A DNA stretch of 64,000 bases from a virus, in IMG/VR virus record IMGVR_UViG_3300045988_167643. One strand, 5' to 3'. A model generated the notes under the pieces. That model saw only the letters and a program-made list of their open reading frames with translations. It was not told the origin of the DNA and ran no database searches. Below, in pieces: positions 11,717 through 45,255 of this stretch (position 1 is its first letter; every line of letters starts with the position of its first letter). Both the position numbers and the translations under genes were made by a program.

Positions 11717-11806
11717 AGGCAGTGTACCTGGACTTGAACCAGGAATCTTCATTTGTATATTTACCAGAATTTGAATATGACGCTTTACCATTAAGCTATA
11801 CCTGCC
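11717..11806 (-). tRNA. tRNA-like gene with canonical D and T arms but a 22-nt anticodon loop and a bulged acceptor stem
   Basis: D arm GCTT-AATGGTA-AAGC and T arm CCTGG-TTCAAGT-CCAGG are canonical. The anticodon stem TCATA/AATGA encloses TTCAAATTCTGGTAAATATACA. Acceptor GGCAGGTA pairs with TAC(A)CTGCC, leaving one bulged A. Confidence 0.5.
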
Positions 11807-24306: not shown

Positions 24307-24641
24307 AATCCTGTTAACCTCATAATATATTCTTTGTATAATGTTGGCGATGCTTCCTTTAGTAATTCTTCTAATTCTTTAATAGGTTTGTTCCAAATAC
24401 ATACGGTGAATGGTGCTTGACAACCATCGTAGTATTCTGCATAAAATTTTACTTTTGAATCTGGGATTACTTCGATTCTATCATAGTTTGCCCTTGCTAC
24501 TCCAAATGCTGATTCACCATAACCAGATTTTGAAATTGCCTCTTCAAATTTATCAAGTTCATCATCTAATGATGAATCCCCTTTGTACCAAAACTCGGAT
24601 AATAGTTTAACTAAAACTTCAAAATTATATTTTTCATTCAT
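24294..24641 (-). CDS. hypothetical protein (115 aa)
   Basis: First ORF of the leftward block below the 24.6-26.3 kb non-coding tract. Confidence 0.55.
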   Translation of the reverse strand: MNEKYNFEVLVKLLSEFWYKGDSSLDDELDKFEEAISKSGYGESAFGVARANYDRIEVIPDSKVKFYAEYYDGCQAPFTVCIWNKPIKELEELLKEASPTLYKEYIMRLTGLWNK

Positions 24642-24764
24642 TTTTTACATTCCTTTCTTGAGATGTGATTAGTGGATTCAATATAGACTTCTAAATGGAA
24701 TTTTATTTTATTCTTATTAATTAAATTCGATGCAAAATGAGAAGTATATTAGTTTAATGTAATT

Positions 24765-24833
24765 TTGAGTTAGATTCGAGTTAGATTTGAGTTAGATTTG
24801 AGTTAGACTTGAGTTAGACTTGAGTTAGACTTG
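24765..24833. repeat. six tandem 11-bp repeats T(T/C)GAGTTAGA(T/C)
   Basis: Units start at 24765, 24776, 24787, 24798, 24809 and 24820, head to tail with no spacers. Confidence 0.9.
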
Positions 24834-25090
24834 AAAAAAATATAGCTATATATTAGACCTGGATGGTGATCTGGGTAGTGAGTGTAGCTGAGATTAAAAT
24901 ATACCCCCATTACGGTACTTTAGATGAGTTTTTGATGGTAAATTTTGACGAAATAGTGGTTAGTGGTAAATTGGTAGGGTAGAGGTGTTTGGACGATTTT
25001 TTGGGTGGAATTTTGATATAAAGTAGGTGTAGATTATAGATGCGTTTGAAATACTTGGATCAGAGCGAGTGTAATAGATGAGATAAAAAT

Positions 25091-25135
25091 AAAGCAGCAC
25101 GTCCGGATTGGATGGCTGCTTTTAAATTTTTTTAG
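25091..25135. terminator. hairpin AAAGCAGC...GCTGCTTT flanked by A-runs and T-runs (possibly bidirectional)
   Basis: 8-bp stem (25091-25098 / 25115-25122). TTTAAATTTTTTT follows on the plus strand and a T-rich stretch follows on the minus strand. Confidence 0.5.
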
Positions 25136-25235
25136 TTAAATTATGTGAATTAAGTTGTGTTTTTTTGATACCGAGAAATAACAGTATTTATATAGGAAAG
25201 AATATGATTGGTGTGATGAGTAAAATGGGTTTTGA

Positions 25236-25558
25236 GTAGGGATTTATTGGGATTTTATCGAATGAGTGTTTTGGTAATAGTGAAAAATTGCTAGTTATGC
25301 CAGGAAAACATTGAGATTTTGGTGTGGTGAGTGATGTATTGGGTATTGTGGGAAATTTGTGTAGCTGAACGGTATCGATTGATTGGGCGAATTTATTTGA
25401 GTTGGGATAGATGGGTGCGTGATTTTGGGGTAATTTTTGATGCTATTTTTGTGGAGTGGGAGTGATGAGTGGTAGGGATTTATTGGGATTTTACGATACG
25501 GTGGTCGATACGATGGGAGAGTGATGGAGAGTGTGAGTTGGTAGGGATTTATTGGGAT
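25236..25558. repeat. three dispersed direct copies of GTAGGGATTTATTGGGAT(T) in a C-poor, G/T-rich tract
   Basis: Copies at 25236-25254, 25472-25490 and 25541-25558. Degenerate (a)gtgatgag(t) and ttgggatagatg motifs surround them. Confidence 0.8.
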
Positions 25559-26274
25559 AGATGCATTTTCCAGTCAGTGTAGAGATTGACCTGCTTATGC
25601 TGCTGAGCCGATCCTGGATCTGCTCCAGGATGGAAAGTACCCCCATCCCTTATTTTCCATGACTTCTAATAGATATTAGTGGACATGCTTTTATACTTTT
25701 ATGATAGGAAATATGCTAAATACTATACAAGACATTCTGGCGTTGTCTGGCAAGTGCTTTAAACTGGTATATAGTAGGAATTTTTCAAAAAAATAGGGTA
25801 AAAAGTCGTAGAAATCCAGTATTTACAAGGGTTTAAAAGCTATAGATAAAATGAATTTTTTCACCAGACAGTGCAGTAATACCATATAATACAGTATCGA
25901 AAACTATGTTATATCATTTTCAAAACAATTTAACTAGTACACTATAGTACATCATGTATACTATAAACTATCACATATGGAATACTAAACTACTTCATAT
26001 AGTTTTCGAAACTACATGACATAGTATTCCTATATTCAATTATGCACTTTGCACAACGACTTTTCCGATTCCCTAGTTTTCACCCTCAAAAAGACATTTT
26101 TACCATGCAATTCACACCCACATAACACCACACAATCCCACTAAAATCAACCATTTTGTGCAATATGCCTATACCGCAGTTCAACTCACTGCTTACAAAA
26201 TGTATTTCCTACACGGACGTTTTAAAACAATTGTACAATTACATACGCAATAACCGCAATACATTAAATTGTAT

Positions 26275-26658: not shown

Positions 26659-26727
26659 AACACTGTACTCATAGTGTATCTACTTTTGTGAAATATTCAG
26701 ACTTGAAAACACTATGAGTACAGTGTT
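26659..26727. promoter_or_regulatory. pair of 19-bp mutually inverted sites AACACTGTACTCATAGTGT / ACACTATGAGTACAGTGTT
   Basis: Perfect 19-bp inverted repeat at 26659-26677 and 26709-26727. Each site has ACACT...AGTGT dyad ends. Confidence 0.7.
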
Positions 26728-26845
26728 ATACTTGCGCTAAGTAATTGAGATACAGCAACAACGACTTCTCAATTGTGGATGTACAAGCATATGTATCTGG
26801 ATAAAACCTACCAGAAAAAAGTTTTAAAAAGTTTTAAAAAAGGTG

Positions 26846-26874
26846 TTGACACATACGATTGTATGTGATATAGT
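26846..26874 (+). promoter_or_regulatory. near-consensus sigma-A-type promoter with an embedded operator palindrome
   Basis: TTGACA (26846-26851), 17-nt spacer, TATAGT (26869-26874). Palindrome CACATAC-GATT-GTATGTG at 26850-26867. A duplicated AAAAGTTTTA A/T tract lies upstream. Confidence 0.75.
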
Positions 26875-26881
26875 AACACCA

Positions 26882-27372
26882 ACAACAGACAAACGTCTGT
26901 TGAGTATCCCAAAAAAGTTGCCAGGCTTATCTGGCGGTAACTATTAATCAAAGCCGATGATTTAGGCATTCGGCATTCTGAACATTGACAACGGCATACG
27001 GATTGAAAAAATAGCGGTTTTAATAATCGCAAGTAGTTCGCAAGGATTGCGTGATATCTTTCCCAAAAAGCCCACGGCGTTAGCTGTGTATCAAAGAGGA
27101 TATATCCTCACGGTGATTTCTGAATCCATTCTAAAATTCCCATGTGGGGCGGTTTGGTATTAAGAATCAATGCACCTTGCCAGAAAAAGGTGTCGGTTAG
27201 ATGTGAATACCGTGGTTATAATAAATGAGAATGCCAAAATCACAGTTGGAGAGTGCCGACTAACAGGACGGACTAGTAAACCGTTCCTCACTCCACCGCT
27301 ACACGCTTTATACAATGCGGTTTATAAATACATAATTGTTTCACCAACTATTTTCAGAGAGGAGGTGAAACT
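26882..27372 (+). ncRNA. candidate structured leader / ncRNA of about 490 nt (GC-enriched, many local hairpins, no credible ORF)
   Basis: Lies between the consensus promoter and the first RBS. Hairpins include GCCGA...TCGGC, GCAA-gga-TTGC, CACGGC-gtta-GCTGTG, GAGGATATATCCTC, CACCTT...AAGGTG, CGGT...ACCG and CCGC...GCGG. Confidence 0.4.
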
Positions 27373-27516
27373 ATGGTAACTATTGATATAGTTCGGTGCA
27401 AAGAACACTATGAACTGTTCTTCGAGGGGCGGTTCTTGTGTTCTTGCGATACGAACGAGTTAAAAAGTTGCTACGAGGACGCTGTAAAAAGTGTTTTCTG
27501 TGGTAGCTTTAAGTAA
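27373..27516 (+). CDS. 47-aa Cys-rich micropeptide
   Basis: Strong RBS GAGAGGAGGTGAAACT precedes the ATG. Sequence MVTIDIVRCKEHYELFFEGRFLCSCDTNELKSCYEDAVKSVFCGSFK. A terminator follows. Confidence 0.55.
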   Translation: MVTIDIVRCKEHYELFFEGRFLCSCDTNELKSCYEDAVKSVFCGSFK

Positions 27517-27548
27517 CTCCTAGTTTACACCATTTCCATTAGGATGTC

Positions 27549-27582
27549 AAGCCTGTACAGAGTGTAATGTACAGGCTTTTCT
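27549..27582 (+). terminator. rho-independent terminator
   Basis: AAGCCTGTACA...TGTACAGGCTT 11-bp stem followed by TTTC. Confidence 0.75.
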
Positions 27583-27726
27583 AATGATCCAGGCTATAGG
27601 TCTATGGTTCAATCACAGGATTATTGTTTCACAATTGAATAACACGCACTAGGATTATATCCAGTGAATGATGGGTTATGCCTTCCCAGTAAAAAGCGAC
27701 TGGTAAAAATACCAGAGGAGAATACT

Positions 27727-28332
27727 ATGTCTAAATCTACAAACAAAAAAATCAACTTCGATTCTATGAACAGTGGTGTAATTGATGACCTCAGAACCTT
27801 TAAACAGGTTCGGTTAGAACTGGCACAAAAAGCCAACGACTTTGCACTTGCTAGAAAACCTCTCCAGGATAAACTGGACGTGGCTATTTCAACAGGTGAT
27901 GTGGAGCTTTCTAAGTCTCTGTCCTCTGAAATTGAGGATCTTACTAAAGCTTATAAAGCTGAGGTGACACCAATTAACGAGGAGCTGAACCGTGTTCTTG
28001 GATTAGTTCCACAGGGTATGTATGACTGTTACCTCAAAAAGATTAACGAGGGTAAACGTGGGGAATATCTCCAGGCTTGCCAGGAGTTTGTTCGCCGGTT
28101 CGGTGCAAAAGGTACAGACACAGCTATCAATAAAATGGCTGAGAGATTGTGTGACCTTGTAGGTATTAAAGCTTCCAGCAATAAGATGATTTTGGAGAAA
28201 AACCAGTTTACCAGTCTGTACTCAAAACGTCAGTTTAACAAGATGTGGATGAGTGCATTCTGTGACTATGCATTAGCTGAGATTGATAAATCAATCAAGG
28301 CTGATACTGAGAAAAAACAGGAGGTGGCTTAA
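27727..28332 (+). CDS. hypothetical coiled-coil protein (201 aa from the ATG at 27727)
   Basis: GAGGAG RBS before the ATG at 27727. The track ORF begins earlier, at 27664. Confidence 0.65.
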   Translation: MSKSTNKKINFDSMNSGVIDDLRTFKQVRLELAQKANDFALARKPLQDKLDVAISTGDVELSKSLSSEIEDLTKAYKAEVTPINEELNRVLGLVPQGMYDCYLKKINEGKRGEYLQACQEFVRRFGAKGTDTAINKMAERLCDLVGIKASSNKMILEKNQFTSLYSKRQFNKMWMSAFCDYALAEIDKSIKADTEKKQEVA

Positions 28333-29134: not shown

Positions 29135-29163
29135 TTGACAAAAATATACTTTTAAGTTATAAT
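29135..29163 (+). promoter_or_regulatory. perfect consensus promoter TTGACA-17-TATAAT
   Basis: TTGACA at 29135-29140 and TATAAT at 29158-29163, 28 nt upstream of the toxin gene start. Confidence 0.8.
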
Positions 29164-29190: not shown

Positions 29191-29553
29191 TTGTTTGAGG
29201 TTATTTTTTACAAGGATAAGAAAGGCAAAGAGCCGGTAAGAGACTATTTTATCTCATTGTTTGAGAATGATAGTAAAGACAACAGAATAAAACGTGAGAA
29301 AATCGAAGACTGCATGAACGTTCTAAAGAAAAACGGTGCAAGAGCAGGGCTTCCATATGTAAAACATCTTGAAGGGAAAATATGGGAATTAAGACCATTA
29401 AGTGATAGGATCTTATTTTTTACATATGTTAATAATACAATAGTATTGTTATCCCACTTCCAAAAGAAAACACAAAAAACTCCCAAAAGGGAAATTAAAA
29501 AGGCTGAAAAGCTAATGAATGATTATATAGAAAGGAGTAAGGATAATGAGTAA
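29191..29553 (+). CDS. RelE/HigB-type toxin (phage Gp49-like)
   Basis: 120 aa, TTG start with AAGGAG RBS. FYKDKKGKEPVRDYF...KIWELRPLSDRILFF...VLLSHFQKKTQKTP is typical of the Gp49/HigB family. Confidence 0.75.
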   Translation: MFEVIFYKDKKGKEPVRDYFISLFENDSKDNRIKREKIEDCMNVLKKNGARAGLPYVKHLEGKIWELRPLSDRILFFTYVNNTIVLLSHFQKKTQKTPKREIKKAEKLMNDYIERSKDNE

Positions 29554-29845
29554 AATGAAGATAAGTCCCAGGGGTTCATCCTGGGACGACTTTGAAAGAC
29601 AAATGTATACACCAGAAGAGATTGAAGCAAGTAAAGTTCGGTCTGAAATCATTACGGAAATGATTAAAGCAAGAGAAGAGGGTGGTGTTACTCAAAAGCA
29701 ACTTGAAATTATGAGTGGTATTAAACAGCCTGTTATTTCTCGAATGGAGAAGGGAACTACAGATCCTCAATTATCTACAGTATTAAAAGTGCTTAACTCT
29801 TTGGGAAAAACTTTAGAAGTTGTGTCAATGAAACCTGTAAAATAA
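29546..29845 (+). CDS. XRE-family HTH antitoxin (HigA-like)
   Basis: 99 aa, overlaps the toxin stop by 8 nt. GVTQKQLEIMSGIKQPVISRMEKGTTDPQLSTVLKVLNSLG. Confidence 0.75.
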   Translation: MSKMKISPRGSSWDDFERQMYTPEEIEASKVRSEIITEMIKAREEGGVTQKQLEIMSGIKQPVISRMEKGTTDPQLSTVLKVLNSLGKTLEVVSMKPVK

Positions 29846-44756: not shown

Positions 44757-44784
44757 CAATTTGTTTAGAAGGAAGATTGAAAAT

Positions 44785-45255
44785 ATGAGAATAGAAAAAA
44801 GAAAAAAGACGGTATACGAAGAAATTTATATTGCAGATGATGGAACACAATTTGATACCAAACGTCACTGTTTAGAATATGAGAAAGAAATTGAAATGTG
44901 TAAAAAGGCGAAGGATGCAGAAAAGCTTAGAATACGTGAACTTGATGATGTGATGCCATTAATTAATGTTGAAACATATGAAAATCATGAGTATGTTTGG
45001 TATAAATTGGAAAACGAAAAAGATTTTAATACTTTAAAAGAAACGTTTGAACATTCAAAAGATTTTACTGTTCCAGATGGTTATCCGACACTTTATTGTG
45101 TAGAATCTTTTGGTTATGACAATATATACGAGGACGATAATACATGGACATGTACGCTTGATGAATGTAAAGATGCAGCGGTGGAGTTTTGGGAAAGATT
45201 TGGGTATAAGTTGACATTTGAAAAGGCTGGTGATATTAATGCAGGTACTATTTAG
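44785..45255 (+). CDS. hypothetical protein (156 aa)
   Basis: GAAGGAAG RBS before the ATG at 44785. Confidence 0.6.
   Translation: MRIEKRKKTVYEEIYIADDGTQFDTKRHCLEYEKEIEMCKKAKDAEKLRIRELDDVMPLINVETYENHEYVWYKLENEKDFNTLKETFEHSKDFTVPDGYPTLYCVESFGYDNIYEDDNTWTCTLDECKDAAVEFWERFGYKLTFEKAGDINAGTI

Follow-up and report, generated by a model that had tools for sequence, protein, structure and literature searches.

Organization of the locus

The window analysed here, a stretch of 64,000 nucleotides (nt) from IMG/VR virus record IMGVR_UViG_3300045988_167643, is a piece of a phage of ~180–210 kb from the human gut. Its leftward genes stop at 24641 and its rightward genes start at 27727. The ~3-kb gene-poor gap between them holds the subject of this study, a rightward unit in which a promoter with operators is followed by a long leader RNA, a gene for a small protein of 47 amino acids (aa), and an intrinsic terminator. 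A gene for a 201-aa protein comes next. The features are listed below in window positions; types A and B are two forms of the leader core, and numbers with L denote related contigs.

26846–26874, + strand: main promoter, TTGACA (26846–26851), 17 nt, TATAGT (26869–26874), with TG at 26866–26867
26850–26867: operator O1, CACATAC-GATT-GTATGTG, inside the promoter spacer
26883–26902: candidate operator O2, CAACAGAC-AAAC-GTCTGTTG, at about +3 to +22 with its centre at about +12
26920–26935, + strand: hairpin GCCAGGCTTATCTGGC, with a compensatory G-C / A-U change in relatives
26953–26974, + strand: hairpin GCCGA-UGAUUUAGGCAU-UCGGC, loop conserved
26980–26992, + strand: boxA-like motif GAACATTGACAAC (GTACTTTGAAAAG in type B, GAACCTTGAAAAC in L011)
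27014–27030 and 27033–27050, + strand: hairpins GCGGUU/AAUCGC and GUAGU/AUUGC, common to types A and B
27058–27316, + strand: type-A-specific core of ~260 nt, multi-helix, part of the fold with z = −4.4
27317–27334, + strand: invariant linker GCGGTTTATAAATACATA, which closes the last helix and enters an AU-rich single strand
27338–27371, + strand: hairpin GUUUCACC ... GGUGAAAC, which encloses the Shine-Dalgarno (SD) sequence and ends 1 nt before the AUG
27373–27516, + strand: gene for the 47-aa protein
27518–27544, + strand: weak hairpin with a covarying stem and the conserved loop UUUACACCAUU, between stop codon and terminator
27549–27584, + strand: intrinsic terminator, 11-bp stem (27549–27559 / 27568–27578), 8-nt loop, UUUUCU, −20.1 kcal/mol
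27589–27726, + strand: conserved untranslated spacer with hairpins, ~90% identical among relatives, leading to the 201-aa gene
27727–28332, + strand: gene for the 201-aa protein

As read from the sequence, a sigma-A-type promoter with two related palindromic operators is predicted to start the rightward early operon, and the transcript is predicted to run through ~490 nt of untranslated RNA and the small protein gene and to end at the intrinsic terminator. The first-pass annotation of this DNA had described a near-perfect promoter with a 7+7 palindrome in its spacer, a very strong ribosome-binding site (RBS) before a 47-codon open reading frame (ORF) with five Cys codons, and a terminator with an 11-bp stem. 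All of these are present. The promoter, with a score of 11/12 in our scan, occurs only once in the window; relatives retain the palindrome with altered half-sites; and the RBS GAGAGGAGGTGA precedes the ORF. The annotation had also called the unit self-contained. The unit does have its own promoter and terminator, but an upstream promoter reads into it and the 201-aa gene after it is without a good promoter.

The leader is a folded, non-coding RNA

Within 26881–27372, each of the six frames is interrupted by stop codons of two or more kinds, in line with the earlier statement that these ~490 nt hold no credible ORF. The longest stretch without a stop spans 70 codons and is not maintained in type B. 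The GC content of the leader is 0.412 compared with a window mean of 0.328, within the top 2.2% of 495-nt windows. Coding DNA just 3′ of the unit is as GC-rich as the leader; the reported GC enrichment over the surroundings thus holds against the upstream side and the genome average but not against the downstream coding DNA.

The predicted minimum free energy of the leader is −140.1 kcal/mol, with a z-score of about −4.4 on the + strand, and none of 100 shuffled sequences folds as well. The signal is stronger on the + strand than on the − strand (z = −4.3 and −2.2, respectively), and the fold energy of the alignment is −88.8 in the forward direction compared with −79.9 in reverse. Aligned pairs contain 144 G.U cells and 4 A.C cells, a count biased by the prediction of the structure on the + strand. 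Within 26881–27372 we find no tandem or direct repeat family, and the leader region contains no tRNA-like or transfer-messenger RNA (tmRNA)-like element.

To our covariance-model searches the leader is new. With Rfam 15, the whole window at gathering thresholds gives tRNAs only, and lax filters with a cutoff of E ≤ 10 bring up nothing but chance matches to microRNAs and small RNAs in the leader region. The leaders of type B and of L140 match no Rfam family either. Membership in GOLLD, ROOL, raiA, OLE, C4, T-box, abiF, or a riboswitch class is therefore not supported as far as Rfam 15 can show, as none of these gives a match at gathering thresholds or at E ≤ 10; this covers GOLLD and ROOL, the examples of large phage-associated RNAs named in the first-pass annotation. 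A riboswitch or T-box leader is further disfavoured by the SD hairpin, which varies while the core is constant. Therefore, the core and the SD hairpin do not pair alternately.

Base pairs are kept by compensatory substitutions

Approximately 25 related metagenomic contigs were gathered by means of the 201-aa protein, the 47-aa peptide, and DNA strings, and all belong to one phage group. In a loose pattern scan of metagenomes, 119 of the 120 returned loci are chance matches, and L031 is the only real one.

RNAalifold on 11 type B leaders predicts 111 base pairs in 22 helices. Twenty of the 111 pairs are changed on both sides with pairing kept. Column shuffles yield 6.4 ± 1.6 such pairs (0 of 500 reach 20), and sliding of the 3′ partners yields 2–6. 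Examples of helix variants among type B leaders are:

CCGC/GCGG vs CUGC/GCAG
UAGC/GCUA vs UUGC/GCAA
UUCG/CGAA vs UUUG/CAAA vs GGAUUA/UAAUCC

The helices of the 5′ domain at 26953–26974, 27014–27030, and 27033–27050 covary across all types (A, B, L011, and L140), with changes in 9 of 30 pairs. The stem at 26953–26974 is kept as GUCAG/CUGAC in L011, CCAGA/UCUGG in L140, and GCCC/GGGC in the L141 group. In the two hairpins of 27014–27050, one pair that is compensated between types occurs as A-U 8 times, G-C 3 times, and C-G once, and another as U-A 8 times and A-U 4 times; both hairpins also hold invariant G.U pairs.

Base pairs thus appear to be kept by compensatory substitutions beyond the controls. 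The numbers are to be read with the knowledge that the structure comes from the same alignment, that the sequences are related, that much of the double-change signal comes from L140 and L144, and that the first helix in the count may be a DNA operator. The long structured non-coding RNA that had been proposed between promoter and small ORF is supported by this covariation among homologous leaders, by the asymmetry in favour of the + strand, and by a conservation above that of the neighbouring genes. We conclude that the leader is very probably a real and functional structured RNA of the + strand. It is ~450–490 nt long, conserved, heavily folded, and non-coding, and it is positioned at the start of an early operon. 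It represents a new RNA family, absent from Rfam 15 and narrow in distribution (one group of uncultured gut phages).

Two interchangeable cores

The first ~190 nt of the leader can be aligned in all relatives and comprise several hairpins, the TTGA(A/C)AA motif, and two hairpins ending in GCGTGA..TCTTTC. The ~260-nt core that follows exists in two forms, A and B, with no detectable sequence similarity between them. Type A leaders are those of the window, L011–16, and L018; type B leaders are those of L001–3, 5, 8, 17, 19, 31, and 141–146, with L140 as a divergent B. The 18-nt linker after the core is identical in A, B, L140, and the L141 group.

Core identity within a type is 94–96%, compared with 54–83% for the small ORF and 62–86% for the 201-aa gene; the type A core of the window is 94–96% identical to those of L011 and L018. 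The core is thus more conserved than the neighbouring genes. The core of the window (A) has 46% identity to that of L002 (B), compared with 99.7% for the 201-aa gene. The core assorts independently of the alleles of the small ORF and of the 201-aa gene. A and B cores are thus swapped between near-identical phages in near-identical flanks. In the 3′ domain of type B, loops as well as stems are invariant. A covariance model of this domain gives 10.5 bits (E ~0.03) against the window, a score driven by the common 3′ end. A likeness in helix order between the A and B cores, seen by eye, carries no weight as evidence.

Short motifs recur in both types. UGGAUU occurs three times in the type B leader (L002:3189–3649), every copy in a predicted hairpin loop, although the estimate of its enrichment is rough, and GGAUUG occurs twice in the type A leader, at 27000 and 27044. 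These could be a repeated protein-binding or tertiary-contact motif. Type B leaders also contain GCGATAGCGTG, in place of which the window has GGATTGCGTG; we take GCGATAGCGTG to resemble the enterobacterial ops element and the plasmid single-strand origin sequence CS-6, and do not rely on this likeness.

Sister phages carry a different leader at the same locus. L154 and L157 have a leftward arm with 98–99% protein identity to that of the window phage, and a different ORF-free leader of ~800 nt (type C) lies at L154:3191–4052 (− strand) and L157:1730–2480 (− strand). The type C leaders have in common a 5′ element that resembles a three-way junction, AGGCATTGAAAAGC...GCTTTTCAAT...ATGCCT, and a 3′ element, with a variable middle. 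They precede ORFans of 263–297 aa, which are unrelated genes without a family match. Type C leaders give no match in Rfam at gathering or lax thresholds, and their overall fold signal is weak (z = −1.9). The start of the early operon is a hot spot of long non-coding leaders in this phage group.

Operators and upstream promoter

The spacer palindrome O1 remains palindromic in relatives with altered half-sites, CACAAG/CTTGTG in L011 and CACAAC/GTTGTG in L140. O2 reads ACAGAC-N4-GTCTGT where O1 reads ACATAC-N4-GTATGT (pattern ACAnAC-N4-GTnTGT), with equal 4-nt spacing. In both L011 and L140, the half-sites of the downstream palindrome are identical to those of each one's own spacer palindrome. 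Because of this match, we read 26883–26902 as probably a second DNA operator rather than, or besides, an RNA hairpin. Its covariation is therefore uninformative with regard to RNA. Candidates for a repressor of the two operators are a 69-aa RHH protein and a 72-aa HTH protein.

Two further features lie upstream of the main promoter:

26703–26732, + strand: promoter-like site TTGAAA-18-TATACT, which reads into the leader unit
26659–26677 / 26709–26727: perfect 19-nt inverted repeat bracketing the −35 element of the upstream promoter-like site

Each 19-nt arm is itself a small palindrome, ACACT-N8-AGTGT, and relatives have other palindromes at the position of the upstream promoter. The upstream palindromes are presumably operators of another repressor specificity. 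In the relative L003, the upstream promoter is joined straight to the leader and the second promoter is missing.

The 47-aa gene, the terminator, and the 201-aa gene

The 47-aa ORF is a real gene, with a ratio of nonsynonymous to synonymous polymorphism (pN/pS) of 0.08–0.37 among relatives. Its homologs are P0001–P0004, and diverged versions of 48–49 aa occupy the same place in L140 and L141; some of the five Cys residues are conserved, but not all. The best AlphaFold2 model is β-β-β-α with a mean predicted local distance difference test (pLDDT) of 84.7; the other four models are poor. The protein gives no match in Pfam, PHROG, PADLOC, or the PDB, and the model has no significant PDB neighbour. 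The SD hairpin ahead of the gene is kept as GCCUUAUC/GGUGAGGC in L141–144, where two pairs are changed on both sides and two G-C pairs have become G.U.

Between the stop codon and the terminator, all seven stem variants of 27518–27544 give the same weak hairpin (−1.7 to −7.8 kcal/mol). The same bases overlap a site on the other strand:

27522–27550, − strand: promoter-like site TTGACA-17-TAAACT, which would aim an antisense transcript into the small ORF

All variants keep the −35 element of this site and, at a spacing of 17–18 nt, three bases of its −10 element (T, A, and the final T); the site is inseparable from the hairpin.

The terminator itself is conserved; L018 has a different stem and T-run at the equivalent position. 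A simple terminator scanner did not list 27549–27584, probably owing to the few U left after the extended stem.

Upstream of the 201-aa gene, the spacer has only 9/12 promoter-like matches. Within 27583–27726, two mutually exclusive hairpins are predicted, CCAGU...ACUGG and CUGGUA...UACCAG, of which the second abuts the RBS. The 201-aa protein matches nothing in PADLOC, Pfam, or PHROG and no sequence in the PDB, and its structure model is poor (pLDDT 62.6). Just 3′ of the terminator, the 18-mer CCAGGCTATAGGTCTATG (27589–27606) occurs once in the window and is invariant in nearly all relatives. It is also found between genes in unrelated IMG/VR contigs (L150:7017–7034 and L151:1811–1828, with 1–4 extra matching bases, one of the contigs being GC-rich); these outside matches are about the number expected by chance.

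A possible role in read-through of the terminator

The reading that we favour, tentatively and from the anatomy of the locus, is that of a cis-acting leader of an early operon that controls read-through of the terminator and includes a hairpin that sequesters the SD. The leader RNA would act on its own transcription unit. A hairpin and the boxA-like motif, ~100 nt from the transcript start, may recruit host Nus-type factors; alternatively, the folded core itself may modify RNA polymerase. The long untranslated transcript would thereby be guarded against premature termination, and the leader would set the read-through at 27549–27584 into the 201-aa gene and later genes without their own promoter. 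Separately, the conserved hairpin at 27338–27371 would curb translation of the 47-aa gene by holding its SD. The first-pass annotation had offered an antitermination or riboregulatory leader as its alternative. It stands as the best functional guess, although the leads are weak ones: the boxA-like motif, the hairpin before it, the promoterless gene after the terminator, and the SD hairpin.

The position of the RNA supports a cis-acting leader: it follows an operator-controlled promoter and leads into the first gene, no terminator intervening before the ORF, and a strong terminator separates the small gene from the 201-aa gene, which is without a good promoter. The sequence TTGA(A/C)AA of the boxA-like motif is invariant across every leader type and is the sole primary-sequence motif common to all. 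We read the boxA of Firmicutes rrn leaders from plasmid-borne rrn operons (GATCTTTGAAAACT in Bacillus amyloliquefaciens and GACCTTTGAAAACT in Listeria). In Bacillus and Listeria, the 9-nt core of this boxA has exactly the type B sequence, CTTTGAAAA. In most related loci of 6–9 kb, CTTTGAAAA occurs once, always inside the leader, compared with approximately once per 40 kb in unrelated loci. The exceptions are L144, with two additional copies on the other strand, and L143, where the leader has CATTGAAAA and the lone copy is outside it. The hairpin at 26953–26974, in the position of a boxB and with compensatory changes, ends about 5–8 nt before the motif. The arrangement resembles lambda nut sites and rrn leaders in that a hairpin and a boxA-like sequence follow each other within ~8 nt, close to the promoter and 5′ of a terminator. 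It differs from them in length (~450 nt compared with ~50–70 nt), in that the motif is degenerate in the window and partly paired, and in the lack of an N-like protein. The put RNAs of HK022 mediate factor-independent processive antitermination with two stem-loops in ~70 nt. Like them, the leader would be a structured RNA that is encoded just 3′ of an early promoter of a phage and could influence the transcribing polymerase in cis, but it has no sequence or structural resemblance to put.

Several observations weigh against this reading. The boxA-like sequence of the window itself, ACATTGACAA, is at chance level (3 matches compared with 3.4 expected). A boxA is expected to be single-stranded, and the motif lies partly in a predicted hairpin in type B and within a 10-bp helix in type C leaders. 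Complexes of Nus factors on boxA chiefly counter Rho, not intrinsic terminators. To our knowledge, no nut, put, or boxA site needs anywhere near ~330 nt of conserved structure. The 47-aa protein is acidic (7 K/R and 8 D/E) and without an arginine-rich stretch, and an N-like arginine-rich protein is not present in the operon. Other strong promoters are present in the rightward arm, such as a 12/12 site at 29135, and this arm is therefore not dependent on one antiterminated transcript. Finally, the independent assortment of the core and the ORF alleles suits a free-standing RNA equally.

Alternative explanations

Such a free-standing RNA, acting in trans, is a second possibility that we hold with similar reserve. 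Once cut at the AU-rich linker (27317–27334), the structured part of ~440 nt would work on a partner from the host or the phage; it might, for instance, occupy a protein as a sponge or decoy, counter host defence, or help to take over the host, and the core types would be alternative specificities. This would fit a core that surpasses every other segment of the locus in conservation and is exchanged as a cassette, the invariant loops and stems of the type B 3′ domain, and the linker that is the same in all types. The size and complexity of the leader are also nearer to those of large non-coding RNAs than to those of cis-acting leaders, and the presence in related phages of another long ORF-free leader before unrelated genes is the pattern of a variable accessory locus. 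Like GOLLD and ROOL, the leader is large, multi-helix, phage-borne, and GC-enriched in an AT-rich genome, but those RNAs are isolated genes near tRNAs, whereas this one forms a 5′ leader connected to a gene and is far more narrowly distributed. That distribution, one phage group, speaks against a role in trans, as does the region between RNA and ORF, which holds no terminator or demonstrated processing site. In addition, the sole long complementarity within the window offers no partner. The segments 27056–27068 and 27290–27300, which flank the type A core, are complementary to a 23-nt site at 45177–45199, but similar events occur in ~8% of other windows, within chance. The site lies in a + strand gene (44761–45255) and varies in relatives only as coding sequence, with no conservation beyond that constraint. 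We treat the complementarity as fortuitous.

An RNA-based immunity or antitoxin-like control, with A and B as hetero-immune specificities, is unlikely. In the models for such a control (c4-icd-ant, CI, CA, type III toxin–antitoxin systems, and RCd22-AbiF), an RNA in the operon leader represses or neutralises the downstream product, and a terminator sets the ratio of RNA to protein. The order of the locus is suggestive: promoter with operators, RNA, small ORF, terminator, and a larger promoterless gene. With P1/P7 c4-icd-ant (immI), P4 CI, and N15 CA it has in common the succession of regulatory RNA, small ORF, and larger gene, the alternative RNA types in close phages with otherwise identical contexts, and a plasmid-prophage-like setting (a ParB-like protein and a distant match to phage c-st). 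The leader is, however, 5–6 times larger than c4 or CI (~450 nt compared with ~70–77 nt; c4 is 77 nt) and matches no Rfam C4 model. A C4-type pairing with RBS regions is rejected: these regions are the same in A and B, and the B core is unchanged where the RBS hairpin differs (L141–144). The RBS regions and the core vary separately, and the core therefore does not pair with them. In ToxIN and RCd22-AbiF, as here, a promoter is followed by a non-coding RNA, a terminator, and a promoterless protein gene. RCd22 is reported as a phage-borne leader RNA that can directly neutralise its downstream protein (PMC12373285). The present leader is without tandem repeats and without the abiF motif, an extra small ORF lies in between, and neither the 201-aa nor the 47-aa protein matches a toxin, defence, or antirepressor family.

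Antisense or convergent transcription is very unlikely. A transcript would start at the − strand promoter (27550–27522), run to a terminator-like hairpin at 26935–26920, and interfere with the rightward promoter. The motif TTGACA-17/18-TAnnCT is kept in all variants while its spacer varies, and on the − strand the hairpin at 26920–26935 is followed by T6. But the structure signals favour the + strand, the −10 element matches at only 4/6 positions, and the same conserved bases are explained by the loop of the + strand hairpin and the stem of the terminator. Moreover, L140 and L011 lack the hairpin, and the L141 group has a weaker T-run.

That the region has no RNA element, and is instead a DNA-level feature (operators, an origin, or a recombination site) or an overlooked protein-coding region, is scarcely credible: a DNA operator is the best reading of the first hairpin, and the locus lies in a gene-poor region of 3 kb with iteron-like repeats nearby, but many covarying pairs are G.U, which are mismatches in DNA or on the other strand, helices enclose long asymmetric loops, several kinds of stop codon fall in all six frames, and the stem substitutions are compensatory and not codon-periodic.

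Phage and genomic setting

The same DNA is found in IMG/VR, ENA, and Logan contigs of 174–213 kb from human gut samples. The promoters and ribosome-binding sites of the phage look like those of Bacillota. Genes of the leftward arm have PHROG matches to an exonuclease, a metal-dependent hydrolase, and several phage ORFans, and the window also contains a tRNA cluster. The closest cultured relative is Clostridium phage c-st, through the distant match of one protein only. The leader region gives no blastn match in phage and plasmid collections, scans of genome collections with leader patterns return 0 matches and no host or cellular copy, and extra IMG/VR scans with strings from the type A and type B cores find no further contigs.

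Other features of the window are as follows:

24764–24835: 11-nt unit TTGAGTTAGAY in ~6 tandem copies
24840–25560: ~700 nt with a strongly G-rich, C-poor + strand (GC skew +0.5 to +0.75)
25236, 25472, and 25541: 22-nt repeat GTAGGGATTTATTGGGATTTTA, within the G-rich stretch
11724–11801: fourth tRNA-like match in Rfam (38.2 bits, model positions 5–66), beside tRNA-Asn and tRNA-Tyr; ARAGORN makes no call
29135–29163: 12/12 consensus promoter TTGACA-17-TATAAT
29191–29553: Gp49/HigB-like toxin gene, just 3′ of that promoter
29546–29845: helix-turn-helix antitoxin-like gene, after the toxin gene

The region 24764–25560 has no ORF of at least 60 aa. It may serve as an origin or iteron region or, alternatively, as a C-rich (Rho-loading) leader of the leftward transcripts.

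Significance

Few large structured RNAs have good comparative support but no family, and among those known, several come from phages and are unexplained. The present leader has a clear transcriptional setting, with a repressor-controlled early promoter, a small gene, and a terminator, and the two unrelated cores in near-identical phages amount to a natural experiment. Its function is therefore open to simple reporter and swap tests. Control of read-through by the leader, if true, would amount to an RNA-based early/delayed-early switch in a large Bacillota phage of the gut, and regulation in such phages is barely studied. A leader that acts in trans would instead be an addition to the RNA effectors of phages. 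More speculatively, and with considerable doubt, the leader may be the founding member of a large modular class of phage RNAs, in which a common 5′ scaffold carries interchangeable specificity cores of 260 nt (A, B, and possibly type C). The modular cores would then determine immunity, anti-defence, or polymerase modification through RNA alone, right where the early operon begins.

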